Source: Mesotaenium endlicherianum (Eukaryota). From it: DNA of 46,843 nt. Positions within the stretch are counted from its first letter, which is position 1. Every line of letters starts with the position of its first letter. The translations under genes and the position numbers were made by a program. The notes below the pieces were generated by a model. That model ran no database searches, was not told the origin of the DNA, and saw only the letters and a program-made list of their open reading frames with translations. The stretch covers positions 151,583 to 198,425 of the forward strand of contig WELA01000730.1 of NCBI GenBank assembly GCA_009602735.1. The letters run 5' to 3'. Positions 4,041 to 45,146 of this stretch are shown here, piece after piece.

Positions 4041-7000
4041 TTCTCCTCTTGGAGCTGTTGATATGGGGGAGGGGGCGGGAGGAGCAGGTGGTAGCTTTAC
4101 GCAGGGGCAGGCAGGGCAGCAGCAGGGCCAGGGGCAGGCTGGGGAGGAGGAGGCGGTGGCGAGGCAGCTGCGGAGCGTGCGCAAGAAGCTGCAGCAGATC
4201 GCTGACCTGGAGGATAAGCGCGCGGCGGGCGCGCCCCTGGACGCGCAGCAGCTGGCCAAGGTGCGCACGCGCCGCGCCCTGCAGGCGTGCCTGGCCCACC
4301 TGGAGGCGGGCGTGCTGCCCCCGCCGCTGCCGGCCATGCTGCCGGCAGCCGCGGCAGCTGCCCTCTGCAAGGACCCGGCCTATCTCGGCAGTGGTGGTGG
4401 GGAGGGGGGCTTTCCGCTCTTGCCGGGTGGCGAGGCGGGCGGAAACGCGGGCGGCGGCCCCCCGCACGAGCGTGGCAAGAAGAAGAAGAAGCAGCAGCAG
4501 CAGCAGGTCCCGCCTCCAGCGACGCCTGGGAATGGCGGCAGGGGCGGAGCGGGAGCCGGGGGGGCAGCGGCGGCGGTGGCGGCGGAAGCTGCAGGTGCAG
4601 CAGCGGCAGCGGCAAGGAGAAGGGAGCACTCGGCACCGGAGGAGGACGAGGAGGTGGAGGACAAGTTTGCGCACCTCCTCGCGCGCGTAGAGCTGGTGAG
4701 AGAGGGAGAGAGTGAGAGAGACAGAGAGGGGCCAGAGCCCCTTCTCCCCATGCCTGCAACTTGTGTCTTAAGTCGCCGTCATTGGACACTGGCATCAACA
4801 CCTGGCAGCATCTGACTTGACGACGAGAAAGAGGCAGTGGTTGTTTATTGCACCAAATTACACGTCTGGTGTGACCACGTGGTGCTGCCTCTGTTGCTGC
4901 TGCCGCCGCCACCGCTGCAGAGGCTGCTGCTGCTTCTGCTACTGCTGCTGGTGCTGTTTCTGCATCGCCGCATGATGGTTGTAATGACAAGACGTGCGTG
5001 TGCGCGTGTGCCTGTGTGTGTGTGTGCGCGTGTGGTGTGTGGGTGCGTGTGGTGCAGACGCCCGGCGGAGCGGCCTTGCCGCCCATGTGCCGAACAGAAG
5101 GCTGGCTTTCCCCCAGCGTGCCCGCCCCCCCCTCGCAGGACAGCTTGCATGAAGCAGGCACCCTGTCCTTCTCGTCCTCCTCCTCCATCCCTGCACCCCC
5201 CGCCCCCCGCTCGCCACTTGGCGCCGCCGGACTGGGCCCTGCTGCTGCTGCTGCTGCTACGAGCACAAGCACGCTCAAGAGCAGCGGCGGTGGCAGCGGG
5301 GGCAAACGCAAGGGCAAGAAGGGCGGCCTCTCCATGTTTCTGAGCGGCGCGCTGGAGTCCCCGGAGCCCCCCCTGCGGCCGCACGCCTCCTCCTCCTCCT
5401 CCCTCTCAGGTGCTTCTGCTGGCGCTCCCGCCAAGCCCGAGGGCCCTGCCTGGGGAGGCGCAACTGTGCGCCCCCGTGCAGCGGCCCCCGCAGCCTCTCT
5501 GCGCGACATCCAGACGCAGCAGAACGCGGAGGGGTCCACGCGCTCCCTCGCCAGCGTCCTCCTGCTGCCAGCTGGCAGCCCCGCCGCCGTTGCCGCCGGC
5601 GGCTCCCCCATGCAGCCGCGGCCGGCCGCCCCGTCGGCCCAGGCCACTGCGTGCCCCCCAGGTGACGCCACCGTGGTGGGCGGCAGGAATCCCAAGTCAA
5701 TCGCGTCAGGCTTCAGGGTGCCGGCCGCTTCGTCGCCCACAGCCGCCCCAGGTGGGAGCGGCGAGCGAGTGCCGGGCGGCGGCGGGCGAGCGGGGCCGAC
5801 TCCCGGGCTGGCTGAGGCCGCCATTGACAGCGGAGGGGAGGGGGGTGTTGCGCGCATGCGAATTCCGCTGAGTCAGCTCGTGAAGAGCTCTGCCCCTGTG
5901 GCAGTCAGGGGCGCCAGGGGCCGGGGAGGGCTCTCCGGGCCTGGGCCTGCTGACAGGTGTAAGGCGGAGAGCCCCCCCGTGTGGGCGGCTGCCAAGAGCT
6001 CCAGCTCTCCCTCGCAGTCCCTGCGCTACATCCAGCAGCAGCAGGTACTCTTCCTCACTGTGCTTCCAATTCCAAATTCCTTCTCTCCCCCCCTCGCCCC
6101 CCGCCCCTTCCTCCTCACCTGCTCCCCTCCCTGGTCCTTTGGCAGCGCCTCTTCTGTTTAGTCTTCAGCTATAGCCGCGTGCGATATACAGGTNTCGCTG
6201 ACCTGGAGGATAAGCGCGCGGCGGGCGCGCCCCTGGACGCGCAGCAGCTGGCCAAGGTGCGCACGCGCCGCGCCCTGCAGGCGTGCCTGGCCCACCTGGA
6301 GGCGGGCGTGCTGCCCCCGCCGCTGCCGGCCATGCTGCCGGCAGCCGCGGCAGCTGCCCTCTGCAAGGACCCGGCCTATCTCGGCAGTGGTGGTGGGGAG
6401 GGGGGCTTTCCGCTCTTGCCGGGTGGCGAGGCGGGCGGAAACGCGGGCGGCGGCCCCCCGCACGAGCGTGGCAAGAAGAAGAAGAAGCAGCAGCAGCAGC
6501 AGGTCCCGCCTCCAGCGACGCCTGGGAATGGCGGCAGGGGCGGAGCGGGAGCCGGGGGGGCAGCGGCGGCGGTGGCGGCGGAAGCTGCAGGTGCAGCAGC
6601 GGCAGCGGCAAGGAGAAGGGAGCACTCGGCACCGGAGGAGGACGAGGAGGTGGAGGACAAGTTTGCGCACCTCCTCGCGCGCGTAGAGCTGGTGAGAGAG
6701 GGAGAGAGTGAGAGAGACAGAGAGGGGCCAGAGCCCCTTCTCCCCATGCCTGCAACTTGTGTCTTAAGTCGCCGTCATTGGACACTGGCATCAACACCTG
6801 GCAGCATCTGACTTGACGACGAGAAAGAGGCAGTGGTTGTTTATTGCACCAAATTACACGTCTGGTGTGACCACGTGGTGCTGCCTCTGTTGCTGCTGCC
6901 GCCGCCACCGCTGCAGAGGCTGCTGCTGCTTCTGCTACTGCTGCTGGTGCTGTTTCTGCATCGCCGCATGATGGTTGTAATGACAAGACGTGCGTGTGCG

Positions 7001-8543
7001 CGTGTGCCTGTGTGTGTGTGTGCGCGTGTGGTGTGTGGGTGCGTGTGGTGCAGACGCCCGGCGGAGCGGCCTTGCCGCCCATGTGCCGAACAGAAGGCTG
7101 GCTTTCCCCCAGCGTGCCCGCCCCCCCCTCGCAGGACAGCTTGCATGAAGCAGGCACCCTGTCCTTCTCGTCCTCCTCCTCCATCCCTGCACCCCCCGCC
7201 CCCCGCTCGCCACTTGGCGCCGCCGGACTGGGCCCTGCTGCTGCTGCTGCTGCTACGAGCACAAGCACGCTCAAGAGCAGCGGCGGTGGCAGCGGGGGCA
7301 AACGCAAGGGCAAGAAGGGCGGCCTCTCCATGTTTCTGAGCGGCGCGCTGGAGTCCCCGGAGCCCCCCCTGCGGCCGCACGCCTCCTCCTCCTCCTCCCT
7401 CTCAGGTGCTTCTGCTGGCGCTCCCGCCAAGCCCGAGGGCCCTGCCTGGGGAGGCGCAACTGTGCGCCCCCGTGCAGCGGCCCCCGCAGCCTCTCTGCGC
7501 GACATCCAGACGCAGCAGAACGCGGAGGGGTCCACGCGCTCCCTCGCCAGCGTCCTCCTGCTGCCAGCTGGCAGCCCCGCCGCCGTTGCCGCCGGCGGCT
7601 CCCCCATGCAGCCGCGGCCGGCCGCCCCGTCGGCCCAGGCCACTGCGTGCCCCCCAGGTGACGCCACCGTGGTGGGCGGCAGGAATCCCAAGTCAATCGC
7701 GTCAGGCTTCAGGGTGCCGGCCGCTTCGTCGCCCACAGCCGCCCCAGGTGGGAGCGGCGAGCGAGTGCCGGGCGGCGGCGGGCGAGCGGGGCCGACTCCC
7801 GGGCTGGCTGAGGCCGCCATTGACAGCGGAGGGGAGGGGGGTGTTGCGCGCATGCGAATTCCGCTGAGTCAGCTCGTGAAGAGCTCTGCCCCTGTGGCAG
7901 TCAGGGGCGCCAGGGGCCGGGGAGGGCTCTCCGGGCCTGGGCCTGCTGACAGGTGTAAGGCGGAGAGCCCCCCCGTGTGGGCGGCTGCCAAGAGCTCCAG
8001 CTCTCCCTCGCAGTCCCTGCGCTACATCCAGCAGCAGCAGGTACTCTTCCTCACTGTGCTTCCAATTCCAAATTCCTTCTCTCCCCCCCTCGCCCCCCGC
8101 CCCTTCCTCCTCACCTGCTCCCCTCCCTGGTCCTTTGGCAGCGCCTCTTCTGTTTAGTCTTCAGCTATAGCCGCGTGCGATATACAGGTCGTTTCACTCC
8201 ACACTCCAGATTCCATCATTGCAGCGGAGTTGACGCGCATGCGCGCGGTGCTTTTGTCGGCGGGCGCAACTCCCAGGAGGAGCGGAACGCACATTTGCGG
8301 CAGGCGCAGGCCCTGGTGCTGTCCACCTCGCCAGGCCCAGGCATGGCGCTCCCCTCGGCCGCGCCCGACGCGGGCTCTGGTGGGATGGCGTCGGCCGCGA
8401 GCACCAACAAGTGGTACCGGCCGGAGGCGGACGCGGGGCCAGCCTCGCTGCGCTGCATCCAGATCGAGGAGGAGGCCATGAAGCAGCTGCGGCGCGCCTA
8501 CGGCGGCTCCGTGCGCGTCGTCACTCGCGAGGTCCAGCCCTGA
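8..8543 (+). CDS. 3' part of a multi-exon RCC1-repeat protein gene, IBTK-like (plant ankyrin/RCC1 family). The 5' exons lie outside the window.
   Basis: RCC1 repeats (VYTWGNGANYQLGTG, FTWGFGRGGRLG, FTWGGNLEGQLGYG, AAAKHHT), a coiled coil RSVRKKLQQIADLE, KRKGKKGGLSMFLSGAL, SLRDIQ/SLRYIQ/SLRCIQIEEEAM motifs and a C-terminal NKWY. GT-AG exons are readable at about 8-236, 813-958, 1464-1753, 2289-2501, ~2734-3232, 3700-4695, 5058-6044 (repeated at 7054-8040) and 8277-8543. Confidence 0.85.
388..665. other. Assembly gap (N run) next to poly-G
   Basis: Run of N. Confidence 0.99.
813..958 (+). CDS. Exon of the RCC1/IBTK-like gene
   Basis: Continues DVH-SGQVAVIKPRQ...FTWGSNR with AG/GT boundaries. 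Confidence 0.75.
1464..1753 (+). CDS. Exon of the RCC1/IBTK-like gene
   Basis: ttgcag| EGRLGYNSVDTQPTPRRV...ALSANGE |gtggg. Confidence 0.8.
2289..2501 (+). CDS. Exon of the RCC1/IBTK-like gene
   Basis: cag| VFSWGYRMVMPRRV...DPSLRCRQ |gtgtgt. Confidence 0.8.
2734..3232 (+). CDS. Exon of the RCC1/IBTK-like gene (acceptor lost at the N at 2733)
   Basis: VAAGKYRTAIVTAAGDVFAWDG...SLKELCQ...FCE |gtccgc. Confidence 0.7.
3700..4695 (+). CDS. Exon of the RCC1/IBTK-like gene
   Basis: cag| VLAMRNLDYIL...RKKLQQI...VEL |gtgag. Confidence 0.7.
4199..8189. repeat. Apparently identical 1995-bp tandem duplication (4199-6193 / 6195-8189) joined by a single N; probable scaffolding artefact
   Basis: Identical ORF translations offset by 1996 bp; the junction is an N at 6194 and the second copy starts mid-exon. 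Confidence 0.9.
5058..6044 (+). CDS. Exon of the RCC1/IBTK-like gene (duplicate copy at 7054-8040)
   Basis: tgcag| TPGG...KKGGLSMFLSGAL...SLRYIQQQQ |gtactc. Confidence 0.7.
8277..8543 (+). CDS. Terminal exon of the RCC1/IBTK-like gene
   Basis: cccag| EERNAH...NKWYRPE...SLRCIQIEEEAMKQLRRAYG...TGA. Confidence 0.8.
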   Translation, partial: EERNAHLRQAQALVLSTSPGPGMALPSAAPDAGSGGMASAASTNKWYRPEADAGPASLRCIQIEEEAMKQLRRAYGGSVRVVTREVQP

Positions 8544-10292: not shown

Positions 10293-11569
10293 GGGGGGGG
10301 GGGGGGGGGGGGCAATGGCGCTGCCCCGCATGGTACACACCAGCATAACCTTTGGGCAGCCTTCCGTGCACACACACGTTTCTGCTGTTGGCCCCCGCGG
10401 ACAGCCCCCGCCCAGTGGGATCTCCAGCACAAACACCTGCACACACATGTAGTCAGAGGGAGGCACCCGCAGCATACACCAGAGGGGGAGAGAGCTAGCG
10501 CTGTCCCAATTTCCACACAGAGGCACATCACATTCTCCACACACACAGCCATCGAGCATGCATGCCGCCAGCCGGCAATGAAGGTGCATGTATCTGTCTG
10601 CATGCATGGAGTCCCTCTCACGTGCACTCACTCAGCCCCAGGCGCATGCATGAGTGGAGTTGCTGCAAGCAGGGCTAGGGGCAAGGTGCGCATGCAGGCA
10701 TGCGGAGCCAGCTCACCACCTGAGCTTAACTTGCAGCAGCTGCAGGTTTGAAGGAGGAGGAGGAGGAGGATATTCCCCGACTTCGAGAGCCAGCAGGCAG
10801 GCAGGTAGGTGGGCAGGCAGGGAGGGTGCTGTTGAACTCCGACTCTGGCTGCCTTCCTTTCAGGTTTCTCATTCTAAACCTGCGTAGTTGCATGACCACC
10901 GTTCTGGCCGGATGGACCTGTTTTGTTAGGCCAGAAGACTCCAAGGCCGATGGGGGGTGGCAACCAGCGAAAGAAAAGAGGACGGTCGTGCAGACCCCCC
11001 CCCTGCAGGCGATGCTGATGCATGCACACATAAGCACCTTGGGCATGCATGCCAGGTGGAGCATTAAACTTCATCAGTTCTGCCTCAAGCACGCCACAAC
11101 CTTCTTGTCGGGAAACATTGGAGGCAGCCTGGAGCTGCATGATAGAAATGCCCCCGTCACAAGGGCGGCAGCATGCCACTCACTTTCTATCCCGGCAGCG
11201 GAGTTGGAGAAGGCTCCTAAGTTGCCACATGTCATGGCTGGCACGCGTATGCCAGATTTTGGAACAGGATGGAACCGTGCCCTGATGTGACAAGATTAAA
11301 TTTTAAGAGGGCATGAGAGGCGTCCTGTTGCATCTGAATGCCGCGTTCATGGATCACAATTGAGTTGGCCCTCAACGTGGCCTCTGCTTTGTTCGTGCCA
11401 CTCAAGGGCAGCAAGGTCAATACATAGTGAATAGGCTCAGTGTGACCCAAAGCACATCGTAGTAAGTCTCATTTTACCCCACTTTCAGCAGTGGTCTACC
11501 CTGCCTGTAACTTACACATAGAAGTGGAAGACAACATGCACCCTTCGGCCTTATAGAATGTACACCCTT

Positions 11570-11575
11570 TTTATT
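11570..11575 (-). promoter_or_regulatory. Candidate polyadenylation signal AATAAA for the UDG-like gene
   Basis: tttatt on + in an AT-rich patch about 230 nt downstream of the ORF stop at 11803. Confidence 0.3.
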
Positions 11576-11802
11576 TATAAAATGCTACGTACGACATACA
11601 TATTGTACATAGTGGAAGGCTTGACCAACCACGAGGCATTGCTGAAGGCTATATCAGTCCAGACATGGACATCTGCCACATAAGCCTCTTCGATATTTGA
11701 ATCATTTATCATTGCTACATAGTGCCTTAATCCCAGCTTCTGTACAGGCCTCTAGCACGCTCTACGCCGAGGGGGCAGGGCTAGAGAAGACCACCTTGCA
11801 TT

Positions 11803-13353
11803 TCACTCTGGCTGACTTCTCTCTTCTGCAATCGAGTGTAGTATCGCGTGTAGGGGTGTTGCTTCCAATGCCGAGCAGAGGTCTAATGAAGCCTCATTCG
11901 AGGCCAGCTTCCTTGCAACAATCTTGGACAAGTCGGCAGCCGGTGCCTTTTGAGGCGAGGCGGCGGAGGCCTCGGATGGTGGGGCCAGAAACCTCCTCCC
12001 CCTCGTGGAGCTGGCAGCAGGCGGGACAGGCTTTGTGCGGGTAGATGACACCGGCGTGGCAAAGTCACTGGCGTCCTTCGATTCCTCCAATGCCAAGCTC
12101 TCAGTCGCCGCTGTAAGCTTCTCAATCGTCGCCAGGTGGTCCTCGGACTGCTGGGACTCCTCCAGCGCCAGGCTGGCAGTCGCCGTTGTGAGCTTCTCAA
12201 CCTTCTCAATCGTTGCCAGGTCGTCCTCGGACTGCTGGCACTTGTTGAATGTCCCCTCCTTCAGGCCTGAGCCGGAGCTGGCACCTTGGGCGGTGCTTTG
12301 GGTAGGCCCATTGCCGTTGCTCCCTTGGAAGTCACTATTTACCGGTACATCGACAGCGTGTGAGTAGGCAGCCCGAAGGGCCCTTATTATAGCCTCATGC
12401 TGCCTGGCCTCCCTATTCGTGAAGTCCCTATACCAGGTGAAGGTTCCTATATTGTCTTTGACCTCGTCCTTGACCTCGTCGGTCACTTTGGCCAATAATT
12501 TCTCCTGCTCGGCTATGCACTCTGACATTATATCAGATGCCTGTACAAGCGTAATGTGAGTGCTCTGCAGTCTAGTCTCGTCCACTAGTGTTGGCAGCTT
12601 CCTCTTGCTGCTTCCACCACCCGTCAGGAAGAATGCATTATATATGTCACATACTATTTGAGTCAGAGCCTGCAGGCACTGGCTATCAGGTATCTTAGCA
12701 GCCCGCGTACACCGAAACTTCCTTGCAGCACCGGCAGGATGTATACAGCTATGCATGACTACGCTGCCCTCCAGCGGGCTAGGCATTTTGGCCTTTATTA
12801 TGGAGCCCATGCTAGCAGCCTCTTTTCCCAGGCATACCATTGGAATGGACTCGAGGCCTGAAGCAGGCAGCAGTAAAGCGAGGAGCTTGGTCACGCACTG
12901 CACTATTGTTACACACTCGTTGTGGCTGTCACTGGTGCCCTTTTCAGAACATATCCTGGCGTCAAGTAGCAGTATCCCGTAGTCCAACAAGGCATAAGAT
13001 TGTTTGAAGATCATCATGGACACCTCATGGGCGTCATTGGGGCTGATGCCGAGCATTTCGGACAGCTGGCTACACATAGAATTCGCCAGAACTACCACGG
13101 ACGGAGGGTCATAGGAGCCCACATATGCAAATGGGGCCCCTATGTATGGTATAATGGACCTGTCTCTAAATCCATATGGACTTTGGCCTATAATCAGGCC
13201 TCTTATCATCCTAGTGGTAGGCCACCGGAGGGCGTACCTGATAAACCCAGTTAATGCCTCCTCATACCTATTCCTGCCTATGAGAGTCAGACTATGTATC
13301 ATGGAAGCAACAGCCCTGCATGCATCATCTGTATTGAAGCGTTCTTGCGCCAT
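11803..13353 (-). CDS. Intronless family-1 uracil-DNA glycosylase-like protein (poxvirus D4-like N-terminal domain, aa ~45-215) with a long helical/low-complexity C-terminal tail
   Basis: Ordered UNG motifs: IIGQSPY (cf. GQDPY), GAPF, PPS, GILLLD (cf. GVLLLN), SH, VCLGKEA, HPAGAAR; 516-aa uninterrupted ORF. Confidence 0.75.
   Translation of the reverse strand: MAQERFNTDDACRAVASMIHSLTLIGRNRYEEALTGFIRYALRWPTTRMIRGLIIGQSPYGFRDRSIIPYIGAPFAYVGSYDPPSVVVLANSMCSQLSEMLGISPNDAHEVSMMIFKQSYALLDYGILLLDARICSEKGTSDSHNECVTIVQCVTKLLALLLPASGLESIPMVCLGKEAASMGSIIKAKMPSPLEGSVVMHSCIHPAGAARKFRCTRAAKIPDSQCLQALTQIVCDIYNAFFLTGGGSSKRKLPTLVDETRLQSTHITLVQASDIMSECIAEQEKLLAKVTDEVKDEVKDNIGTFTWYRDFTNREARQHEAIIRALRAAYSHAVDVPVNSDFQGSNGNGPTQSTAQGASSGSGLKEGTFNKCQQSEDDLATIEKVEKLTTATASLALEESQQSEDHLATIEKLTAATESLALEESKDASDFATPVSSTRTKPVPPAASSTRGRRFLAPPSEASAASPQKAPAADLSKIVARKLASNEASLDLCSALEATPLHAILHSIAEERSQPE
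12083..12240 (-). repeat. Two-copy coding tandem repeat in the UDG-like tail
   Basis: QQSEDDLATIEKVEKLTTATASLALEES / QQSEDHLATIEKLTAATESLALEES. Confidence 0.85.
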
Positions 13354-13410
13354 TCTCGCTGAATTCCTAGATAACCTGACAGAGTCTCTAACGTAGACGA
13401 GAAGTTAGCT

Positions 13411-13825
13411 TCAGCCTAACAACTTTGCCAATTTTACCCCAAGCTCGCCTTCAATGCCCCCCTCACCCTCTGCCTTCGTGCGCCTTCCGGACTGGTGCCT
13501 ACGATGCTTTTGCCCTCCAATATTGTTGCCTTCAGTGCTTGTCGGCCTCGAATTCGCGATTGAACGTGGTGAGGTACCGAGGAACTTAACGCATAGTTGC
13601 GATGTGCTAAGAAGGAAAAGGACGTTCCACATCTCTGGACGAGCGTCTTAGCGAGGACATCTCGTCTGCTGCCTAATATGTGCCGGAACTCTTTCATCAC
13701 TCTAACGCCAAAGTCTTGGCCTAATTGCTCCTATTGCTGCATGCACGGCTTCTCGACCTCCAAGAAACATTCCCGTCTCAGAGCTTCTCGCTCAACATTC
13801 GAACATGCCTCGGAGTGGCCTATTC
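13411..13825 (-). pseudogene. Decayed ORF of unknown function immediately upstream of the UDG-like gene
   Basis: The frame of 13434-13700 extends upstream through one TAG (EREALRRECFLEVEKPCMQQ*EQLGQDFGVRVMKEF); a second overlapping frame ends at 13411. Confidence 0.3.
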
Positions 13826-14724
13826 ATCAGACAAGTACTCAGACAAGTTTGAATGGTGCATACCAGTGCATACTCACTCATACATGCAGCGTTAATCACG
13901 TGGTATTGATCCGAAGCAAGCTGCCACATGGACAATGCATCGAGTTATTGTATGTAATCTAAGGCGCACCCCACGCTGCCGCATGCTGCCCGACGCTCAG
14001 CTATAGTTCGAATTGGCCTGCACAGGCCTGCATGCATGCTCATTGTGTTATGACCTAGTCACGCAGTTAACTCCTCACACGTGCTAAGTTGACTCGCTAC
14101 ACTTGACTCGTCATATAGTTGACTTCATTCAAATACACCAGCTCAGCATGTACATTCAGTCAGCTAGTTCATCTAGTCAGCTAATAACTAGCGCCATTTA
14201 TTCTAGCTGTCAAGACAGCATGTTAAGAATACTTCACACAGATCAATAGCTGAGACCACTAGATCTTGCATCCTCTAGGATTGACATATATTCTAATCCA
14301 TCCATTCACATAGATGACGATGCAGCAGTTCAGTGATCAGCAGCTTAGACTGATCTTGCTACAGCTTCAATTCTTCATGTATAAATGATGACTCTCGCTA
14401 TTGCAAGATCATCCTTCAATCATTTAGCAAAGCTCCTTCAAGTCTTTACTTCTGTATCTACTAAGTACATGCTATCACGTTCCTCAGCTTAGACTACCTA
14501 GGCCCTAATGGCTGAAGGTAGTACTAACTCTTCCTTACACATTGCTCACCTAGCTTGCATGCTTATTTTCAGTATAGTTATAACTTACAATGTGTACCAC
14601 GCTTGATATGGTGGGACACGCGCTATCCGCGAAAGTGGCCGCGGGGTTCGAACTTCGGACTAATAATACGAGGCTCGGACCCTGGGCCTAGCAATGTCGC
14701 AACTGTCCTCCCTTCTGTGAGTAC

Positions 14725-15350
14725 GCTCGCTATCCCTCTTTCGTAAACCCCCCTATCCTTCTTCTCGTAACCCCCCGCCATCCCTCTTTTCGTCCGCCAT
14801 ACCCCCCTATCCTTTTTTCGTGATTCCCCCTATCCCTCTTCTCGTAACCCCCGCCATCCCTCTTTTCGTCCGCCATCACTCTTTTTGTACCCCCCTATCC
14901 CTCTTTTTGTAACCCCCCCTATTCCTCTTTTCGTAACCTCCGCCATCCCTCTTTTCGTCCACCATCTCTCTTTTCGTACCCCCCAAACCCACTTTTCGTA
15001 ACTCTCGCCATCCCTCTTTTCGTCCGCCATCCCTCTTTTCGTACCCTGCTATCCCTTTTTTCATAAGTCCTGGAGCCTACTATCCCTCTTTTCGTTACCC
15101 CCCCTATATCCCTCTTTTCATAACCCCCGCCATTCCTCTTTACGTCCGCTATCCCTCTTTTCCTACCCCCGGGCCCCCTATCCATCTTTTCGTAACCCCC
15201 GGCATCCCTCTTTTCCTCTGCCATCCGTCTTTTGGTACCCTGCTATTCCTTTTTCGTAACCTCTGGTATCTTCCAACGAAACCCCCGCCATCCCTCTTTT
15301 AGTACCCCTGCCTATCCCTTCTCTCGGCCACCCGGCGTTCCCCTCTTCGT
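14725..15350. repeat. Degenerate ~19-24 bp minisatellite, core ATCCCTCTTTTCGT(AACCCCC/CCGCC)
   Basis: More than 20 visible copies; strongly pyrimidine-rich + strand. Confidence 0.9.
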
Positions 15351-17161: not shown

Positions 17162-19066
17162 GTGAGCAAGAATTCCCAAGTCAGCTGGGGATTGAGACCT
17201 GTGAAGGTTGCCGGTGTTCAACCTGGAAGGGGACCCGGAGAAATTCAACTGTATATGCGGTTGAGGAGTGAAAGACTCTACCACTCTGTGGAGCCTGCAG
17301 AAGGTTTTGATTCTAACCAGAGTCCACGAGGAAGTGAGACGTCTGAGCATATTGACAACCGATGGAGTGAGCAACCGTCGAGAGACAAGTCTCGTCATAT
17401 CTCCGCAGGCGGTGAGAACCCGGATAACACACGAGCCTTTGCACTTGATTTGGGCAGAGAGCAAGACGTGTGGGGTGAAGTCAGTAAGTCCTGGTCATCG
17501 TTCAAAATGGCCGGTGATGATTGGGATGAAAATCCTAAGTTCAAGCTATCTGCGAAGTGTTTTAGCGGACAAACCAGCGGAAACGGTCTCACTTTCGAAG
17601 AGTTTGATGAGATCTATTGGGCAGAATTCTTTGAGAAGATCCGGAAGGATTCTTCTTATTCGCAATTTGTCGCCTTTATAGGCTTGGTTCAGTACTTGGA
17701 CAAGGATGTCTTGCTGTTATATCGCCAATTCTGGAAGGATGAGAATCTCTCCCAGGAATGGGCTTGTGGAGAACAGAATAGGGCAAGGAATTTGAAAATC
17801 CAGAAAGAGGCTGCGAAAGCCCGAATGTCTGCTTTATCTTCAAGAAGAACAGTGCCAACTGCACCTGTTGAGAGCATAGACTTAGGTGCACTAACACAAG
17901 AATTAACAGAGGCCATGAGGCAACTCACTGAGGGCCAGCAAAGGGCAGCCACTCAGAATGATGATGCCGGCTCTGTCGCAGAATTGCAAAAGGTGTGTGC
18001 AGAACTGTCTGAAAAGATTGCTAATGCTCAGGAACGAGTAACACGCAAAGCTGCACCTCTCTATGGTCAGCAAGACAATAGCACCACGACAGAGGCAAGC
18101 CATGCGCAAGCCTTGGCTAGCTGTCGTAAGGATATGGAGGCTGGGGATGACCAGCTAGACTCCAAGCATTGCCTGCGTCGTTTCTTTAAATTGCTTGAAG
18201 CACGATTCCCAAAGGATCGCAGTCTTAAGGTACACCATTATGTGCATTTAATCCGTCAGAAGAACAAGACAATCATGGAGGTCAAATCCAGATTGGTAGA
18301 CCTCGCCAAAAAGGCAGAAATCGTTGAGTTGAAAGCTCAGTTTGCGGAACTAAACGAGCCCAATGTCTACTATGATGCAGATAGTGCAGAAAAGGCCGTC
18401 TACAAAGGCGAGAAGCTGATGCCTGAAAAGGCTGTGGACGCAACGGCTGCCGAGCAAGCAGATCACAACCGTCTGGTGCCAAGGAATGCTGGGAAGCTTC
18501 CTCAGACTTTCCGGATGACTTTGGATGAAAAGGAGATCTCGCAGCCACGACAGGCCAGGCCCGGGACGCGTAAGACATTTAGTTTTTTGCTGGAGAAGCT
18601 GAAGGCCCTGGTGGAACACCGGATCCAGCATGCTCCTTTGCTTTCTCTTGCTGATTTGCATATCACTTACCCATTCACGGTTGAAGAAGCCGGACACCAG
18701 CTGGATATAGCTGAGGAAGGTGCGGATAGCGCCTCATTGCCCACCAATTTCAGCACCGTGAGAGTGCAGAACAGGGATGGTGCATTAATCTTCAACAACT
18801 GGGCAGCTCCCAACATTCTGTTGGATACGGGTGCATAGCCAGTCATTTTGGGAAAGCGAGCCGTGAAAGCTCTGGGATTGACGACAAGGGACCTGAAAGA
18901 AAGTCCTTTCCAGCTGAGAATTGCCTCAGGACAAGTCTCAAAGTCTTGTGGGATTACCCGCAAGCCTGTGAAAATCACAGTAAATCCAAGGAAACCTGAA
19001 GAGGCGTCACTACTCATAGAGTGCACAGTGACGGAAGCAGAGAACTCTTGGGAACAGAAGCACTGA
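17162..19066 (+). pseudogene. Retroelement Gag-like plus retropepsin (aspartic protease) region, disrupted
   Basis: Long ORF (likely ATG 17507) reaching ILLDTGA*PVILGK with an in-frame TAG at 18836-18838; the same frame continues to ~19040, then a frameshift before the protease LLG motif. Confidence 0.75.
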
Positions 19067-20535
19067 TTCCCTTGGGTATGGTCATTGATCTGCGGAAGCA
19101 GAGGGTGACTTACCAGTCAACAGATTGGCAGCCGACAGGAGAAATTCGTGTGAAGATGGTTTGCACAGGAGAAGCAAACCACGGATTGCTAGACTGCTGC
19201 GTTAACGACAGGTACCCAGAAGCCGCTGACAACCTCATGAAGCAAGAAGAGGAAGGCTATACGAGCATCAACATGCCAACACCCTTAGTATGGCAACCCC
19301 GACTCATGAAGCAGCTGGAAACTGTGAGTAATAGGGACCGCGGCCCGCAAGAGTTGCTGCCAGTACCCTACCCAGTTACCTCCACTGCAAATTTAATGCC
19401 TAGAGTTGAGCCGCTGCCGCAAGGCATTGTCAGGATGGAAGATCCTTTTCGCAAAAGGGGAGTAGTGGTGTTGGAATTATTTGCCGGACTTGGGTCTCGG
19501 ACCATAGCATTGATCCAGCGAGGAATACAAGTGGCCAAAGTCCTGTATGTGGACAATGACGACCACGCTTTTCTAGCATTCAAAGAAGTCATGAGTCAGA
19601 TGCAGAAAATGCATTATTTTAAAGGATTGGCGCCCGCATATAGCGATGTCGAGCGCATTGCCGAAGGCAACATTATTGATGTAAAGCCTGAAGGCCTGTA
19701 TGGCTACAGGATTGACTGGATCTTTGCTGGATTTCCTTGTCACCCGTTTTCTCAAGCTGGAAACCGGAGGGGATTCAGTGATCCACGAGCACAACACTGG
19801 GGATGGATGGTGAAAATCATCAGCATGCTGCGGGAACGACAGCACTACTACCCATCAGTGTTTGTGATTGAGAATGTGCATCCAGGAATGGATTATAAGC
19901 AGATGAAGCCAGGAGAACCATGGCTGATTTTCGACTCCACTTTGGGCCATCATGTGCTAATCAACGACGCCAAGCACGAAGGATTATCCCATAGGGCCAA
20001 GATATTTTGGATCAACGGCATGTCTATTGAGGTCCTGAGAGAGATGGAGGACATTCCACGGCGACCACCAACAGCCTTGACAGTGGAAGAGGCGCTGGCG
20101 GTGCATACCAGACCAGTGGCCAGGAGGGATTTTTATCCACAGTGTGTCATCAACGAACCAGGTCAGCCAAGGGTGGTATTGCCATCCTTCACAGCATATC
20201 CAAAATCCCGAGCCTTCATAGAAGGTGGACCAAGAATGGTCAAAAACATGCATGAAAGAGACGCTGTTTGGAGAGGGCCCAGTGCGGTGGAGAAGGGCAA
20301 ATGCCTTGGAATACCCGACATCATAGCTCGTCATACAGCCGGTGCTGTAGGGTCAGATGAAGCTGCAAAGATTTTCGGCAACATGATTGGGCAACACTCT
20401 ATGACTTGGTTGGTAGAAACAATCATGACGTGGCAGCAGCTGACCTTCACTGACAAGCCTATGCAGAGGCCAAGACCAGTGACAATTGGGGTCAATGTGG
20501 TGCCAACGTCTGATCAGACATATACTTTTTTCTGA
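19021..20535 (+). CDS. C5-cytosine DNA methyltransferase domain of a retroelement polyprotein; truncated at ~20511 by another LTR
   Basis: Motif I LELFAGLG (19471-19494), IV AGFPCHPFS (PC at 19735-19740), VI FVIENV (ENV at 19870-19878), VIII HRAKIFW, X IFGN (~20377); preceded by the protease C-terminus ELLGTEAL. Confidence 0.9.
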   Translation: MHSDGSRELLGTEALIPLGMVIDLRKQRVTYQSTDWQPTGEIRVKMVCTGEANHGLLDCCVNDRYPEAADNLMKQEEEGYTSINMPTPLVWQPRLMKQLETVSNRDRGPQELLPVPYPVTSTANLMPRVEPLPQGIVRMEDPFRKRGVVVLELFAGLGSRTIALIQRGIQVAKVLYVDNDDHAFLAFKEVMSQMQKMHYFKGLAPAYSDVERIAEGNIIDVKPEGLYGYRIDWIFAGFPCHPFSQAGNRRGFSDPRAQHWGWMVKIISMLRERQHYYPSVFVIENVHPGMDYKQMKPGEPWLIFDSTLGHHVLINDAKHEGLSHRAKIFWINGMSIEVLREMEDIPRRPPTALTVEEALAVHTRPVARRDFYPQCVINEPGQPRVVLPSFTAYPKSRAFIEGGPRMVKNMHERDAVWRGPSAVEKGKCLGIPDIIARHTAGAVGSDEAAKIFGNMIGQHSMTWLVETIMTWQQLTFTDKPMQRPRPVTIGVNVVPTSDQTYTFF

Positions 20536-32133: not shown

Positions 32134-32852
32134 TGTAATGAATCAGTATATTGGTAGATATAATAATCATTTAAATATAATAGTTAATTAAGTTCAGCCT
32201 GCTGAACTTTACGTAGTATGTAAGTCTGCTGGACTTTATATAGTTATCAGTTTAAGGACTCAGTCGGAAGCAGCAGGCTGAAGTCAACTTAAGTCAGCTT
32301 GCTGACACATTCTTTGACAGCCAGCTGACTTCCGTACTCGGTAGCAGCGAACTGCCTCGATATGCATCTAAGTGTGGTATGCTAGATAAATGGCAAGATG
32401 ACATTCCTATGATGGATGGCGATTCGGGATGATGGGAGATGGCGGTGGATTTGGTTAACCGAGGTCCTACCAACGTGGTTAACTCCCGGGTAGGTGGTGC
32501 CATCGCACTGGCCGTTGAACAGTAAACTCATTCCATGTACATATGCTAGGATTGCTCTCGAGTTCGGCATTCGGAAACGAGGCCAACTCTCTTGTACAGC
32601 TTACTTAGAGAAATCTGAATCCAAGGCGAGAAGCCATTGATACGCATTGTCTTCCAACCTTGCTTATGTACGAGTTTACAGATTGCATTATTGATGCTAG
32701 TTTACTTGCATTTGACTTACGAGTATTATTCACTGCTAGTGTGTTGTCCTTTGCCATTTAACCAGTTAACGGAAAATACCATAAAGATTACTTGCTGATA
32801 TAAAGATCTTTATTAATTGTTAATCGCCTATTTGGTAAGTCGATTCATTTCA
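32134..32852 (+). repeat. Family C 5' LTR (plus-strand copy, 719 bp)
   Basis: TGTAATGAATC...GATTCATTTCA terminal inverted repeat; PBS TGGTATCGGAGC at 32854-32865. Confidence 0.95.
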
Positions 32853-32886
32853 GTGGTATCGGAGCAGTTATCACAGTCTTCTTTGT

Positions 32887-34268
32887 ATGGTAAGGACAAG
32901 GTCTCAAACTAGCAACTCCCGAGACATGGAGAACCAGGATAACGAGAATGTCGAAAACCAGGCGAAAAGCCATGTAGCGGGAACCCGCACCTATTCTGAA
33001 GTAGTGGCAGATACTGCAGCTAGAAAGGCTGCAGATGTGGCAGCTGCTATTGCCGCAGTCGCAGCACAGCAAGCTGAGCAAGAGAGAGCCGGATTAGAGG
33101 CTGAACAATTAGCAAAGGCTGCTGAAGATACAGAAAGGAGGGAAGGACAGCCAGCTGACGAGCGCACGGTTGAAGAACTTATGGCATCCAGGGCCAATGT
33201 TCTTAACCCACCTCCTGCTGTACAACTCAATGTACCCCTAGGTCAAATACGTGACCGGCTGAATGCGGCAGGAATTGCTGCTGCAGGAGCGAGAGGGACT
33301 GTTGAGGACACTACTCAGCGAGTGGATGCCACTGCTGCTGCTGCATTTGCTAGACTTCCACCCCAGAGTGTAGACTTGGGAGCATTGTTCGTTCAAATGC
33401 AGTCGCAAATGGCGACCATGTATCAGTCCCAACAGGAGGACAAAAGAATCATAATGTCTCTACTGCGGGACAGAGACCAACTGGGTTCTCAAAGCACTGG
33501 TGGTGGTGGAAGAGGGCCTAGTAAGCCTAAGCCGAAACCTCCCCAGGACTATGATCCTGAGCGAAACAAGAAATATTTCCTGATCAATTTTCTCGTTGAT
33601 GTTGAGCAGTGGCTGGAGAACTATCCAAAGCTGCAAGATTACGCGAAGGTCAGGCACACCGGTGCGCTACTGAAAGGCAGTGCCGCAGACTGGTGGCAAT
33701 ACTAGAAAGGAGAGCGTAACGCTCAGAAACTCGGTGACCCTACGTGGGTAGTGTTTGTCGAGAAGTTGCATGAGAAGTTTGATGTCATCAACCAGCAGGA
33801 GAAAGCTATCTATGCAATGATCTCCTTGACACTGAAGCAGACCACTTCAGTTGCTGAGTTTGCTCAAAAGTTCCAAGAGAACATGATGAAACAGCTAGAC
33901 TTGCCAGAACGGTACAGGATAGCATACTTCAGGTATGGCTTGAAATACGAGGTCTCTGGTCATTTTGCTGAGAAGACGTATGAGAAATATGCTGACTTGA
34001 TCCAAGATGCTGATGCTTGGGATCAGCAGCAATTCAATTACAAGCGCCAGAGTAATGCTTTGGTATCTAAGGTTGTCAAAAAGCCCCACGGTTCCTACAA
34101 TGCAATTGAAGGAGACCAGGCTGAGGATGATCAGGGTGATGAATATGGGTATGAGTACAATGCTATGCAGTCTAGAGGGAGAGGTGGTTTCTCTCGAGGC
34201 GGCTATGGAAGAGGTGGTGGTAGGACTAAGCCGAGACCAGCCTCATCAAAATCAATTTGCTTCCATTG
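32887..34268 (+). pseudogene. gag: Family C gag with a premature TAG at 33703-33705, cut in the zinc knuckle by the next insertion
   Basis: Near-identical to gag at 40831-42309; ends ICFHC at the LTR junction. Confidence 0.92.
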
Positions 34269-34988
34269 TGAAATGAATCGACTTACCAAATAGGCGATTA
34301 ACAACTGATAAAGATCTTTATATCAGCAAGTAATCTTTATGGTATTTCCGTTAACTAGTTAAACGGCAAAGGACAAATCACTAGCAAGGAATAATACTCG
34401 TAAGTCAAATGCGAGTAAACTAGCATCAATGATGCAAGTCAGCAAAACTCATACATAAGCAAGGTTAGAAGACAGTGCGTATCAATGGCTTCTCGCCTTG
34501 GATTCAGAGTTCTCTCAGTAAGCTGTACAAGAGAGTTGGCCTCGTTTCCGAATGCCGAACTCGAGAGCAATGCCTAGCATATGTACATGGAATGAGTTTA
34601 CTGTTCAACGGTCAGTGCGATGGCACCGCCTACCCGGGAGTTAACCACGTTGGTAGGACCTCGGTTAACCAAATCCACCGCCATCTCCCATCATCCCGAA
34701 TAGCCATCCATCATAGGGATGTCATCTGGCTATTCATCTAGCATATCGCACTTAGATGCATATCAAGGCAGTTCGCTGCTACCGAGTACGGAAGTCAGCT
34801 GGCTGTCAAAGAATGGGTCAGCAAGCTGACTTATATGGACTTCAGCCTGCTGCTTTCGGCTGAGTCATTAAACTGATAATTATGTAAAGTCCAGCAGACT
34901 GACTATTAACTAAAGTTCAGCAGGCTGAACTTAATTAACTATTATATTTAAATGAATATTATATCCACTAATATACTGATTCATTACA
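34269..34988 (-). repeat. Family C 3' LTR (720 bp)
   Basis: Reverse complement of 32134-32852; PPT AAGTTGGAGGGAT adjacent at ~34989-35001. Confidence 0.95.
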
Positions 34989-35101
34989 ATCCCTCCAACT
35001 TAACTTGTTGTCGCCTCGACAACATTAAACTGCAGAAATTTTAAATAAGGGAACTGAACCTGACCAGCCTCCCTTACTGACTGCCTCTTCAGCGTGTCAC
35101 C

Positions 35102-36778
35102 TTAAGGGGTTGTTCCTGGGGCTTCAGAATCAGGAGACGGAGATCTGGACCTAGATCTGGACAGCCCTCTAGGTCTGTCAGCTGGCCTTCTAAAGAACCC
35201 TGTTTGCTCTAAAGTTGGCCCTCGAGGAGAACGGAGGATGGTGGCCTGCTCTTCAACCACTTGGGTGTTGATTCCCACATAGACAGGCATTCCAGTAGGA
35301 TGCTGAAATACATTGGCTAGAGGTACATGCCCCTGAGCGGAGGGGGAGGCTGGCATACCTCTGGCCCACCCGCGTGTCCCTCTTCTGGCACCCCTGTCCT
35401 CTGGGGATTTCTGTCTGTGTCTGCTGCCCAGTACAGTCAGATCAGCTTCTTCCCCTGCTTGGGCAGGTGGGCTGGGGGAGCGAGCGCGGGGTCCAGTTGT
35501 CGCCATAACGGGGATCACATTCCACACACCTGATCGTGGTTCTTTAGGAAGTGCCACTGCCTGTCCCTGGGTATCCTGAGTACCTGCTGCTGATGCTTCT
35601 CCTCTGCCTTGTTCTTCTTCCTCATCCTCCTCATCCTCCTCCTCGGAGAGAGTAGGGGTCTCGTCCACTAAGTCGTCCTGCTCCCTAGTAGACATGGAGT
35701 AGTCTACCGACCTCCCTTTCTTAGGGCGCGCTGGAGGTTGCTTGGCCTTCAGCCTACTGATATCTATCCGGCCTGCATTCTTTGCCCATTTGACAAAGGC
35801 ATGCTTTCCCTTAGAGAAGTACTCTCTTCCCCTCCTCCTATGTTCCTTGGTCTCTGCATTCATATTGCTCAGGCATCCATTCAGCCTGGGGTCCCAAGGG
35901 GCAATGTGAGGTGGTAGGATGAGATAGCCGTCTAGGCCATAGTGGAAGTCATCCGGTTGGGCTCGGTCACACTCCTGCTTCTTATTTGTGACGGTCATCC
36001 ACCTCCAGTCTGTTGGCTGCTGGTAGTACTGGGGTCCGTGCTCAGCCTTCCTCAGTTTACACGGGAACCAGTGGGGAGAGAACATCTGCTGTCCTGCTTC
36101 CCTGGCCAAGTACTCCCAGCTCCTTCTCTCAACTTCATTGTAAGCTGGCAGGAGTGTGAGGTAGAATACCGTATCCTTAAAGCTATCGGGCCGCATGCTC
36201 ACCATCCGGATGAGTCTCTGATCTCCCACTATTCCCGGTATGGGGACCGGCTTGTCCTCTGAATCATCTGCGAGATACCGGGCCTGCTCTGCTGTATAGC
36301 CCACCATCTTAGCATAATCTTCGTAAAGGACCACGCCGGTGTGTGTCTCGATGTACCTGTCCAGTGCTGTAGCTCCTTCCTTCTGTAGCAGTGTTGTCTG
36401 TTCCAGCCTGTTGATCTCCTGGGCTGCCAGCAATGCTTCCTTCAGGTTATCGAAGTTTTGGCCACCCACCACAGTATACCTGTAAGTGGCCAAGCTCTTC
36501 TGTCTGTCCGCTTCAATCTTTTTTCTTTTCTCCTCTTCTGCCGCTGCCGCTTCTTCTTGCTGTTTCTTCTGTCTCTCCTCCTCAGCCTTCCTGAGGTTTT
36601 CCGCTTCCTGATCCTTCTTCCTCTGTGCCTCTTCTGCCGCCTCTTGTTGTTTGCGGACCCTTTCTTGTTCTCTCCTGGTGAGGGACGTCGCCGCCAGCTC
36701 CTTCTGGTATTGCTCCATTGTCCTCCTGGCTTCTTCTGCCTTGCGCTTTCTGTCCTCCTTTTGTGTGGTGGGCGCCAT
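35102..36778 (-). CDS. Extra sense ORF (~558 aa from MAPTTQ) between pol and the 3' LTR; function unknown
   Basis: Long intact ORF in both tandem copies; charged coiled-coil N-terminus, aromatic-rich core, acidic and RS-rich tail; ATG at 36778 follows a TGCAG acceptor. Confidence 0.85.
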   Translation of the reverse strand: MAPTTQKEDRKRKAEEARRTMEQYQKELAATSLTRREQERVRKQQEAAEEAQRKKDQEAENLRKAEEERQKKQQEEAAAAEEEKRKKIEADRQKSLATYRYTVVGGQNFDNLKEALLAAQEINRLEQTTLLQKEGATALDRYIETHTGVVLYEDYAKMVGYTAEQARYLADDSEDKPVPIPGIVGDQRLIRMVSMRPDSFKDTVFYLTLLPAYNEVERRSWEYLAREAGQQMFSPHWFPCKLRKAEHGPQYYQQPTDWRWMTVTNKKQECDRAQPDDFHYGLDGYLILPPHIAPWDPRLNGCLSNMNAETKEHRRRGREYFSKGKHAFVKWAKNAGRIDISRLKAKQPPARPKKGRSVDYSMSTREQDDLVDETPTLSEEEDEEDEEEEQGRGEASAAGTQDTQGQAVALPKEPRSGVWNVIPVMATTGPRARSPSPPAQAGEEADLTVLGSRHRQKSPEDRGARRGTRGWARGMPASPSAQGHVPLANVFQHPTGMPVYVGINTQVVEEQATILRSPRGPTLEQTGFFRRPADRPRGLSRSRSRSPSPDSEAPGTTP

Positions 36779-37045
36779 CCTGCACATGTAACCAGGGCAC
36801 AAGTTAGTAGGATATGGACCTTTGTCATAGGGATTGCAGGAAGTATGTTAGTATTTAGTATAGTGGCTTCGCTGCTGTTTACCTTACAGGATGATTGCTA
36901 AAAGTTGACGTAGTTGCGATGCGCTACACATAAACGTATGAGTGTGTTTTTATCGCTCTCGCTCACTAACTGTCATATATTTTCCCCTCCAACTTAAATG
37001 GAGACAGGACCGCCTGTCACCTTCCCGTGTCAACTGAAATGACAG

Positions 37046-40000
37046 TTATGGAGGGACTCCAGCGGCCCGAAGGTGGAACCGTGTCAACGCCCCTTTGGCA
37101 TTGGTCAAGTGGTCCTTAAACTCCCAAGTGTCCCCAGAGGCATCGTAACCCTTCCATCGAATGAGGTATTTCATGACATATTTAGACGATCGACGGACCG
37201 AGCGAGCGTCTAAAATCTCATCGACCTCATATTCCTCAGGGTCGCCGTCCCGGACAGCGGGGACCGGTCCCGGTTGGACAGGGAACCGACCTGTGAACAG
37301 TGTATCACCTTTGATGTACGGTTCCAGGAAGGAGACATTAAAGACCGGGTGCCCCTTGTATTCAGCTGACATGTTCAGTTTGTAAGCATTCTGACCGACA
37401 CGACGGACCACCGAATATGGACCGACCCAGACAGGGCCAAGCTTTTTCTTGACCACACCAGGGAGGTACAGGTGCTGAGAATGCAGTTTGACTAAATCCC
37501 CCTTGGAAAATGTCAGTTCCCGACGGTGTTGATTAGCGTATTTTTGTTGGTTTTCTTGGGCCGTGTGCAAGTTTCGTTGGACTTCTGACAGGGTGTCAGC
37601 AAACTCCTGAGTTAACTGGAGGGAGACCGGGTTGTCAATCCCTTCAGGGTGAGTTAAAGATTCCCCTAGCACATCTAGAGGAGACTTAGGGACTCTACCC
37701 AGGCTGAGTTCAAAAGGAGTTTTGCCCGTTGACGCGTGCACCGCACTGTTGACCGCAAACTGAATTTGAGGCAACAGGTCATCCCAATTATCTTGTTTTT
37801 GGTTAATATATGCTCTCAGCACCTCCTGCAGAACTCGGTTAGTTCTTTCAGTCTGCCCATCAGTCTGAGGGTGGTTTGCTGTGCTGAGCAGCTGTTTGAC
37901 TCCCATTAACCCCATTAAAGCTCTCCAGAACTTAGAGGTGAATTTTGAGTCTCTGTCTGAGATGATATTAGAAGGGAGCCCATGTTGGCATACTACATGG
38001 TTGTAAAACTGTCTCGCTGTTTCGAGTGCAGTCACTTTGACAGTTGTGGGGATAAAAATGACCATTTTTGTCAGTTTATCCACGACTACCAGTATTGAAT
38101 CATGCCCGTTGGCAGTTCTTGGTAGTGAGACCACCCAGTCCATGGATATAGTTTCCCAGCGTCCCGCTGGGATGGGTAGCGGTTGCAAGAGACCTCCGGG
38201 TGGTGTGTGCCGAGACTTATTTCTCTGACACTGGTCACAGGACTTGACATATTTCAAGACCTCCCGGGGTAACCCCTCCCAATGATAATGTTTTGCCAGT
38301 TTGCCAACAGTTTTGGCCTGCCCCAAATGTCCACCCAGGAGACTGTCATGAGCTTGACTCAGTAAGAGAGACCTTATTTCCAAGTTATTAGGAATGACCA
38401 GCTTCAGCCTGCCTGAAGTGGTTTCAGTCACCCAGACCCCTCCCTTGAGCTTATACCCGAGTGCAGTAGCACGACACACACCAGTAGTGGGGCTGGGCTC
38501 AAATGTTGGGTCAGAAAGGTAGGCTTTCCTAAGTTGTTCAAGGAAGGACTTTTTCACCTTTAGTGAAGTGAGTGCACACAGGACTTTATCTACAGCATGC
38601 TGACTAAAGTTCCTTTCTTGCAAGTCAGGTCTTCTAGAGAGTGCATCAGCAGGATTCAACTTCCCTGGTTTGTAGTCGATCTGGACTTGGAACTGCTCCA
38701 GCATCTGGCTCCAGCGGTTCTCCCTCCTCGACAGCTTGGACTTCTTCTGAAAGTGGGTCAGAGCTAGATGATCTGTAATCACCTTAAAAGCTTTACCATG
38801 TAAGTATGCTCTCCACTGTTTGAGTACATGAATGATAGCTAGCAGCTCTTTATCATGCACTGAGTAATTAATCTCCGCTGGATTAAATTTCATAGACTCA
38901 TACAACACAGGATGCCACTCCTGCCGTACCTTACCATCCTTTGTGGTTTTGTCAGCAGGCTGCAACAAAATAGCACCCATGGCAAAATCAGAGGCATCAG
39001 TAACCACCTGCACCGGTTTGCTGGGGTCATACACGGCTAGCACTGGGGCAGAACAAAGGGCATCTTTAAGGGTCTGGAAGGCAGCCTGCTGCTCTTCCCC
39101 CCACACATACCCGATGTCTTTCTTAGTAAGGTCAGTCAGTTTACTGGCCTTTGTGGAATAATTCTCAATAAATCTCCTATAGTAGTTAGCCAACCCGAGG
39201 AAGGATCTAACTTCAGAGACAGACTGTGGTACTGGCCAGTCCCTTATGGTCTGGACTTTCTTAGGATCCACACTGATGCCCTCTTTACTGACAACGTGGC
39301 CTAAGAATTCAATACTTTCCTTAAAGAAATCACACTTGCTCATTTTAGCATACAAGTGATTTTTCCGCAGAGTGTCCAGCACTTTCTTTAAGTGTTCAGT
39401 GTGCTGAGCTTCATCTTTAGAGAAAATTAAAATATCATCCAGGAAAACTTGCACAAACTTATCCAAATAAGGTCTGAAAATGTCATTCATAGCACCCATA
39501 AAGGTAGCAGGAGCATTAGTCAGTCCAAATGGCATCACGTTGAACTCATAGTGTCCATAACGTGTGCGGAAAGCAGTCTTGTGTTCATCCCCCTCAGCAA
39601 TTCTGATTTGATGATAACCACTCTTGAGATCTATCTTACTGAACACCTTAGCGCCAGACAGGGTATCAAGCAAGTCCTCGATCCTGGGTAAAGCATACTT
39701 GTTCTTTACTGTAATTCTGTTCAGGGCTCTGTAATCCACACACATCCGCATACTGCCATCCTTTTTCTTAACAAATAGGATAGGTGCGCCGTACGGTGAT
39801 TTACTGGGAGAAATGTAACCATTTTCCTCCAGCTCTGCAATCTGTGTTTTCAACTCCTCGCTCTCCAAATAAGACAAGCCATAAGTGCGTTGCCAGGGTG
39901 GCTGGCTACCAGGTAATAGATCAATCCTATGATCTACTTCCCTTTTAGGGGGTAGTCCTGGAGGCATGTTAAACACATCAGTGTACTGAGCAACAATTTT

Positions 40001-42309: not shown

Positions 42310-42330
42310 ACAAAGAAGACTGTGATAACT

Positions 42331-42342
42331 GCTCCGATACCA
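42331..42342 (-). other. Primer binding site (tRNA-iMet) of family C
   Basis: TGGTATCGGAGC on the minus strand. Confidence 0.92.
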
Positions 42343-42343
42343 C

Positions 42344-43089: not shown

Positions 43090-43202
43090 ATCCCTCCAAC
43101 TTAACTTGTTGTCGCCTCGACAACATTAAACTGCAAAAGCCTTAAATAAAGGAACTGACCCTGACCAGCCTCCCCTACTGACTGTCTTTTCAGCCTGTCA
43201 CC

Positions 43203-44879: not shown

Positions 44880-45146
44880 CCTGCACATGTAACCAGGGCA
44901 CAAGTTAGTAGGATATGGACCTTTGTCATAGGGATTGCAGGAAGTATGTTAGTATTTAGTATAGTGGCTTCGCTGCTGTTTACCTTACAGGATGATTGCT
45001 AAAAGTTGACGTAGTTGCGATGCGCTACACATAAACGTATGAGTGTGTTTTTATCGCTCTCGCTCACTAACTGTCATATATTTTCCCCTCCAACTTAAAT
45101 GGAGACAGGACCGCCTGTCACCTTCCCGTGTCAACTGAAATGACAG

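Follow-up and report, generated by a model that had tools for sequence, protein, structure and literature searches.

The stretch of DNA analysed here (46,843 nucleotides; the window) contains a gene whose predicted product resembles the family-1 uracil-DNA glycosylases (UNGs), except that Ser stands at the position of the water-activating Asp and Asp at that of the uracil-reading Asn. A preliminary description had proposed a virus-derived, poxvirus D4-like protein that either recognizes cytosine or acts without catalysis. The locus raises the question of whether this is an enzyme with a new base specificity, a protein that holds DNA without cutting it, or a relic in decay.

The gene, its setting and its transcription

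The reading frame is intact, as had been described: all 516 codons of the ORF (P0001; 11803..13353) are open on the minus strand from 13353 to 11803. Alignment columns and codons likewise confirmed Ser58 (AGT, 13180..13182) at the water-activating Asp position and Asp131 (GAC, 12961..12963) at the uracil-reading Asn position, and Tyr60, Phe75 and His205 are where they had been placed. Reading along the same strand, a UNG family-1-fold domain (aa 1-240, 12634..13353) is followed by predicted long, coiled-coil-like helices (aa 253-309, 12427..12597; model helices H253-289 and H292-309, pLDDT 43-75) and by a Ser/Ala/Pro-rich tail containing an internal tandem duplication (aa 373-400 and 401-425, 12079..12237). 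An AATAAA at 11570..11575 (minus strand), 228 nt past the stop, is a candidate polyadenylation signal. Upstream, a unique stretch with low RNA coverage in runs X22 and X24 (13354..14563, minus strand) may be a 5' UTR or promoter region; it contains no ATG-initiated ORF of at least 100 aa, only short stop-to-stop frames, and no Rfam match.

The window is eukaryotic, with a GC-rich gene on the left and Ty3/gypsy chromodomain retrotransposons on the right, and within it the UNG-like gene is solitary among retrotransposons. Rfam and tRNA scans gave no match. An N gap lies 1.5 kb downstream of the ORF and repeats flank the unique stretch; positions 10330-14700 form one contig with a flat DNA depth of 61.5 (in one run, possibly the source run), and 62-100% of the words of the stretch were present in 16 runs, from four further studies, bearing the same species label; none of the indexed runs with the stretch was listed as RNA. 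Positions 11594 and 14486-14525 briefly match further DNA contigs of the same run, which could reflect related copies at other sites in the genome. A degenerate CT-rich tandem array of 19-25 nt units (14725-15330) borders the unique stretch. At 17162-20535 on the plus strand, a Gag-like ORF with a DTG protease-like motif at its end precedes an intact C5-cytosine methyltransferase ORF (19078-20535; Pfam E=1e-15), about 6 kb from the UNG-like ORF; this unit resembles methyltransferase-carrying retrotransposons. The GC-rich host gene contains a tandem duplication (about 4100-8160; spacing 1996 bp, 100% identity over the 300 nt compared) that is possibly an assembly artefact. The region 32134-46805 contains several Ty3/gypsy chromodomain elements that are nearly identical; one of them has intact gag (492 aa) and pol (1238 aa) and a duplicated 561-aa ORF of unknown family, and there is an inverted partial copy at 32683-34269.

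Since the three RNA runs (X21, X22 and X24, read at 6-13%) came without a host-gene control, they are weak evidence that the gene is weakly transcribed at best. In X24, the one run of three in which the ORF body was covered, RNA extended over 11498-14563 at a depth of about 1-4 in both mate directions; the depth ended in the bin 11498-11643, near the AATAAA at 11575, and was absent further down. Compared with uniform DNA carry-over, this confinement has a rough p=0.003, assuming about 21 fragments. RNA of X22 lay mainly at 13980-14700 with a little on the 5' end of the gene, and X21 had nothing on the gene. No splice joints were listed at this low RNA depth. Upstream of the gene, at 14195-14540, X22 contained seven polyA-library molecules with identical beginnings and ends, which may have arisen from a single fragment by PCR or represent a small transcript of their own.

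A UNG fold without the catalytic aspartate

P0001 alone stayed under the Pfam cut-off for UDG (E=0.03), returned nothing from PHROGs or NCBIfam, and gave an unusable single-sequence AlphaFold2 model (pLDDT 37); its ESM Atlas feature score to UDG clusters was 0.91, with no family cluster given. With an alignment of 22 sequences (21 relatives plus the query), AlphaFold2 reached a pLDDT of 84.8, and the best structural matches of this model were family-1 UNGs, headed by M. tuberculosis UNG (Z 13.4, rmsd 3.3, 190 residues aligned), in line with the UDG fold proposed earlier. Among cluster representatives, Z was 11.9 for Deinococcus UNG, 10.6 for the mimivirus enzyme and 10.4 for vaccinia D4; the other UDG families scored 8.6 (family 4), 8.5 (SMUG1), 8.2 (family 5) and 7.1 (MUG). 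Among predicted viral structures, an entomopoxvirus and a pithovirus UNG ranked first, and herpesviral ones had similar E-values. A family HMM built without the query matched P0001 at E=3e-48, and the family profile aligned GQxPY, F, PS, LLx(N/D), G and H with the same motifs of human UNG. The predicted UNG fold of the N-terminal ~240 aa is thus more than a chance resemblance. The order UNG domain, long helices, low-complexity tail recurs in most full-length members, with a small helical region at the end of several; over the long helices of the query, to which a region in the relatives is similar, coiled-coil chains match the family profile.

Within this fold (Z 11.4-13.4 over about 190 residues), GQxPY, Tyr, Phe, PPS, LLL, Gly and His follow in the order of family-1 UNGs, and the residues concerned in P0001 are Q57, S58, Y60, F75, S85, D131, G176, H205-P206-A207 and R211. 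The query nevertheless shares 11-18% identity with these enzymes, lacks their catalytic Asp, has Asp in place of the uracil-reading Asn, and bears a 270-aa helical and low-complexity C-terminal extension. The earlier claim that all family-1 motifs are present holds for GQxPY, F, PS, LLx, G and H, but the Ser of the Gly-Ser loop (here GK) and the HPSPLS Leu loop (here HPAGAAR) are absent. Of the four Ser positions with which UNG pinches the backbone (PMC1936997), only one (S85) is retained.

When 1.84 billion representatives were searched with phmmer, 23 relatives emerged at E<=0.001 (4 at <=1e-10). All 23 belong to this UNG-like family and stay below the Pfam UDG cut-off, and the 20 clusters looked up for them are without a name. 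The counts that follow refer to 22 rows, the query and 21 relatives, with the fragments P0004 and P0014 excluded. Position 58 is Ser in 9, Asn in 9, and Asp, Ala, Arg and Glu in one each; position 205 is His in 13/22 and Asn in 9/22. The HPSPL loop occurs in 0/22 rows and Arg211 in 17/22. Mean identity in the family is 22%, yet the pocket and fold columns are conserved (Gln57 21/22, Tyr60 22/22, Ser/Thr85 22/22, Asn131 20/22). On the evidence of these sequences, P0001 is an intact member of an undescribed, unnamed family of UNG variants, in which loss of the catalytic Asp is family-wide; because of this loss, the non-catalytic or binding role suggested in the preliminary description is plausible.

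In the eight-row clade of the metagenome locus L001, Asn occupies both catalytic positions (58 and 205). The motif-2 position of MUG is also Asn, and Asn at both positions is the pattern of this active family-2 enzyme, so that the missing Asp is not proof of inactivity. Asn can activate water, as N18 does in MUG (PMC4333384), and we therefore only infer that the family is inactive. In human UNG the same Asn/Asn combination is that of the laboratory variant D145N+H268N, catalytically dead according to PMC11162499.

Asp131 has a different distribution. Asn is present at this position in 20/21 relatives, including the two nearest (P0002 and P0003), as well as in the proteins of P0014 and L001, which lie outside the 22-row count; Asp is found only in the query and P0005 (N20 D2). 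With Asn in 20/21 relatives, Asp131 is not a family trait, and we rejected that idea. The query matches 19/20 of the most conserved columns, Asp131 being the sole miss, and on this alignment Asp131 is a specific lineage-level change in a sound protein. Private decay, which the preliminary description had linked to close homologs keeping the usual D and N, fits position 131 but not position 58, and elsewhere the protein shows no decay. P0002, P0003 and P0007 form, together with the two Asp carriers, one five-member clade (support 96/90); a sister placement of the two carriers is only marginally rejected (AU p=0.048), which is a hint of two separate origins. P0005 lies on a 163,709-bp contig and is the sole relative looked up that is far above the element size described below; both Asp131 carriers may be host-integrated copies.

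We found no special tie to D4, to which the gene had been thought closer than to cellular UNG. Among the 45 matches of the family profile at E<=10 were 41 cellular, herpesviral and mimiviral UNG sequences and no D4 chain, judged by the PDB entry codes that we took to be those of D4, and D4 was not in the top 50 entries of the structural search. Where D4 has GIDPYP, no Pro-rich loop, IPWN, no Gly-Ser loop and HPAARDR (PMC1936997), the query follows cellular UNG with GQSPY, PPS, LLLD and GK; the Leu-less loop HPAGAAR alone is D4-like, and three relatives have the exact D4 loop spacing with Asn for His. Motifs and scores thus favour cellular UNGs and do not support a special kinship with D4. D4 does share the UNG fold (Z 10.4, rmsd 3.5, 187 aligned) and the Leu-less HPA..R loop. 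According to PMC1936997 it is a 218-aa active enzyme with Asp in GIDPYP and with IPWN, and it offers a precedent for a role independent of catalysis, that of a processivity factor with A20.

Relatives on putative compact virus-like elements

The metagenome locus L001, of which 21.5 kb of a 31.4-kb contig were examined, has a family member among densely packed ORFs. Its neighbours include an 806-aa RPB2-like subunit (Pfam E=1e-13), a P4/D5-type helicase (Pfam E=2.5e-12), Pif1, an RNase H-NADAR fusion and a 691-aa ORF for a probable capping enzyme (TFIIS Zn ribbon E=0.0014, methyltransferase-like E=0.025). The last gave no PDB match, and its assignment includes what we take by eye to be guanylyltransferase motifs. 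Positions 1-21515 also contain many orphan ORFs; among the 20 ORFs in 21.5 of 31.4 kb no family B DNA polymerase, jelly-roll capsid or packaging ATPase was recognised, nor were terminal repeats.

Contig sizes extend this picture. The RPB2-like protein of L001 has 46 relatives at E<=1e-15, and of the 45 with a contig, 27 are on contigs of 20-37 kb, 1 on a longer one and 17 on shorter ones. For the UNG-like proteins, 20 clusters (covering 20/23 relatives) divide into 10 on 20-37 kb, 1 longer and 9 shorter. Four exact contig sizes are common to the two lists, and five relatives beyond L001 match RPB2-like proteins in contig size. The cluster pair of P0011 and P0074, one UNG-like and one RPB2-like, shares five more sizes, 6744, 10455, 24341, 26550 and 26552, which suggests an element unit of about 26.55 kb. 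Direct linkage of a UNG-like gene to an element is confined to the L001 clade, sister to the query's; in the query's own clade, the 33-kb contig of P0025 alone fits the element size range. Together, these data point to a compact, putatively virus-like element of 20-37 kb that carries the UNG-like gene, and the viral derivation proposed earlier gains support in this form: through its relative L001, the gene probably originated in such an element. No other L001 genes and no RPB2 remnant are detectable in the window.

The RPB2-like profile scored best against archaeal subunits and about equally against eukaryotic, bacterial, poxviral and asfarviral ones, and these near-equal scores permit no lineage assignment. 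A Quercus suber assembly is the named source of one RPB2-like relative, and this DNA is not necessarily the tree's own. Scans of IMG/VR with the query, A3, the L001 RPB2, P0002, P0006 and the RPB2 alignment found no relative; GTDB genomes gave archaeal RpoB only, and phage and plasmid collections no match.

Several known systems bear comparison. The element's own reduced two-barrel RNA polymerase subunit, helicase and probable capping enzyme recall the pGKL-type cytoplasmic virus-like elements (VLEs) of yeasts and other fungi (PMC13348850) and the Nucleocytoviricota. Points of difference are its D5/P4-type helicase, its UNG-fold gene and contigs that, at 20-37 kb, are far under giant-virus size. 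The NCLDV-like inserts of Physcomitrella offer a parallel in a nuclear genome of the plant lineage, with UDG, D5, capping and RNA polymerase genes of viral derivation, but they form multi-gene clusters whereas the window gene stands alone (PMC4083422); the one moss UDG row examined looks, by eye, like a conventional, decayed UNG. The word 'uracil' is absent from PMC13348850, PMC13533422 and PMC13524828, as is 'glycosylase' from PMC13348850. No description of the family or the element was found in the literature searched, which did not extend to subscription journals and bioRxiv supplements; supplements of giant-virus catalogues could contain the contigs. The L001-type elements are possibly an undescribed virus or virus-like group.

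A proposed captured pseudo-enzyme and its alternatives

That relatives lie on virus-like elements and that the catalytic residue is missing family-wide make a captured pseudo-enzyme likely, rather than a cytosine cutter. Our preferred reading, with a probability of about one half, is that P0001 is a captured DNA-binding pseudo-glycosylase from a virus-like element, a UNG fold without the catalytic Asp and the Leu wedge. The UNG domain would grip the element's DNA, and most members could still pocket uracil by way of Gln, Tyr, Phe and Asn; binding a partner would fall to the long helices and tail. The protein would then be a replication or transcription accessory factor of the element, matching the job of poxvirus D4 by analogy and not by shown descent. 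The window copy would have entered the host genome alone and have long been selected there as a protein; Asp131, we propose, was probably tolerated because no base is excised. That undescribed 20-37 kb self-transcribing DNA elements exist with a disarmed UNG as a core gene is a claim we make tentatively, at a little under even odds.

A slow but real glycosylase, acting on uracil or another damaged base to clean the element's DNA, with the window copy active or weakened, would also account for a pocket as well maintained as the columns of Gln57, Tyr60, Ser/Thr85 and Asn131 imply. UDG families 2-5 use Asn or Ser or substrate-assisted chemistry. Beside the water activation by Asn18, the MUG variant K68D raised uracil activity on mismatches (PMC4333384), and Arg211 could serve as a wedge, as Arg185 does in place of Leu in D4 (PMC1936997). 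Six different residues at position 58 and the alternation of His and Asn at 205 are unlike a catalytic site, however, and we consider this reading unlikely. We rate lower still the view that Asp131 switches the pocket to cytosine or modified cytosine, making the protein a natural C reader or a slow C glycosylase. Human UNG N204D, with Asp at the equivalent position, excises cytosine (PMC11162499), Asp131 is the query's one departure from the 20 most conserved columns, its two carriers share a five-member clade with a hint of two origins, and there is the methyltransferase ORF about 6 kb away. The engineered change was made, however, in an otherwise active and catalytically complete enzyme, whereas the query lacks the equivalents of Asp145 and of the Leu272 loop with its wedge; its nearest relatives have Asn, one transition is enough to produce Asp131, and the equivalent Asp in E. 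coli MUG conferred no cytosine activity (PMC4333384). The altered base specificity proposed earlier is thereby weakened, and cytosine specificity of P0001 is highly doubtful. Equally improbable is the fuller claim that such elements occur and that a eukaryote has, in addition, domesticated a copy now reading cytosine or modified cytosine in place of uracil, which would be the first natural UNG-family member to do so.

The remaining readings concern the window copy. It might be a functionless viral relic that has so far escaped a stop, with Asp131 as early decay: it is barely transcribed, its CpG o/e of 0.59 and TpG+CpA excess are like those of the neighbouring transposons, and no other element genes are nearby. 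We think this a poor bet, and general decay of the protein was rejected, given 516 open codons and 19/20 conserved columns intact. The 25 codon pairs of the internal repeat, picked by protein similarity, differ by 7.5 synonymous and 3.5 non-synonymous changes (dN/dS 0.11, Fisher p=0.0006), a sign of purifying selection that may predate capture; GC3 is 0.60 versus 0.33 in L001, and the RNA is confined to the gene region and ends near the AATAAA. Finally, the best solved-structure matches are cellular UNGs, the N gap is close by and repeats border the unique stretch, as might be the case if the gene were a diverged host or transposon-borne cellular UNG paralog with no relation to virus-like elements, or a foreign fragment misjoined into the scaffold. 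We regard this as very improbable indeed: all 23 matches are in the gene's own family with none at the Pfam UDG cut-off, the relative with known context sits in a polymerase-bearing element, and all runs with the stretch share one species label.

Here a whole natural family lacks the UNG catalytic Asp and keeps the pocket, one clade having exactly the laboratory's 'dead' Asn/Asn combination. The family offers a direct test of whether the UNG fold has been recruited repeatedly for non-catalytic replication factors, the role established for poxvirus D4. If Asp131 were truly a base switch, nature would have supplied its own version of the UNG variants employed in base editors. The family is, moreover, a marker for a compact element whose RNA polymerase is deeply divergent and which, in one cluster, has recurrent contigs of about 26.55 kb, and this element may be a larger discovery than the UNG-like gene itself.
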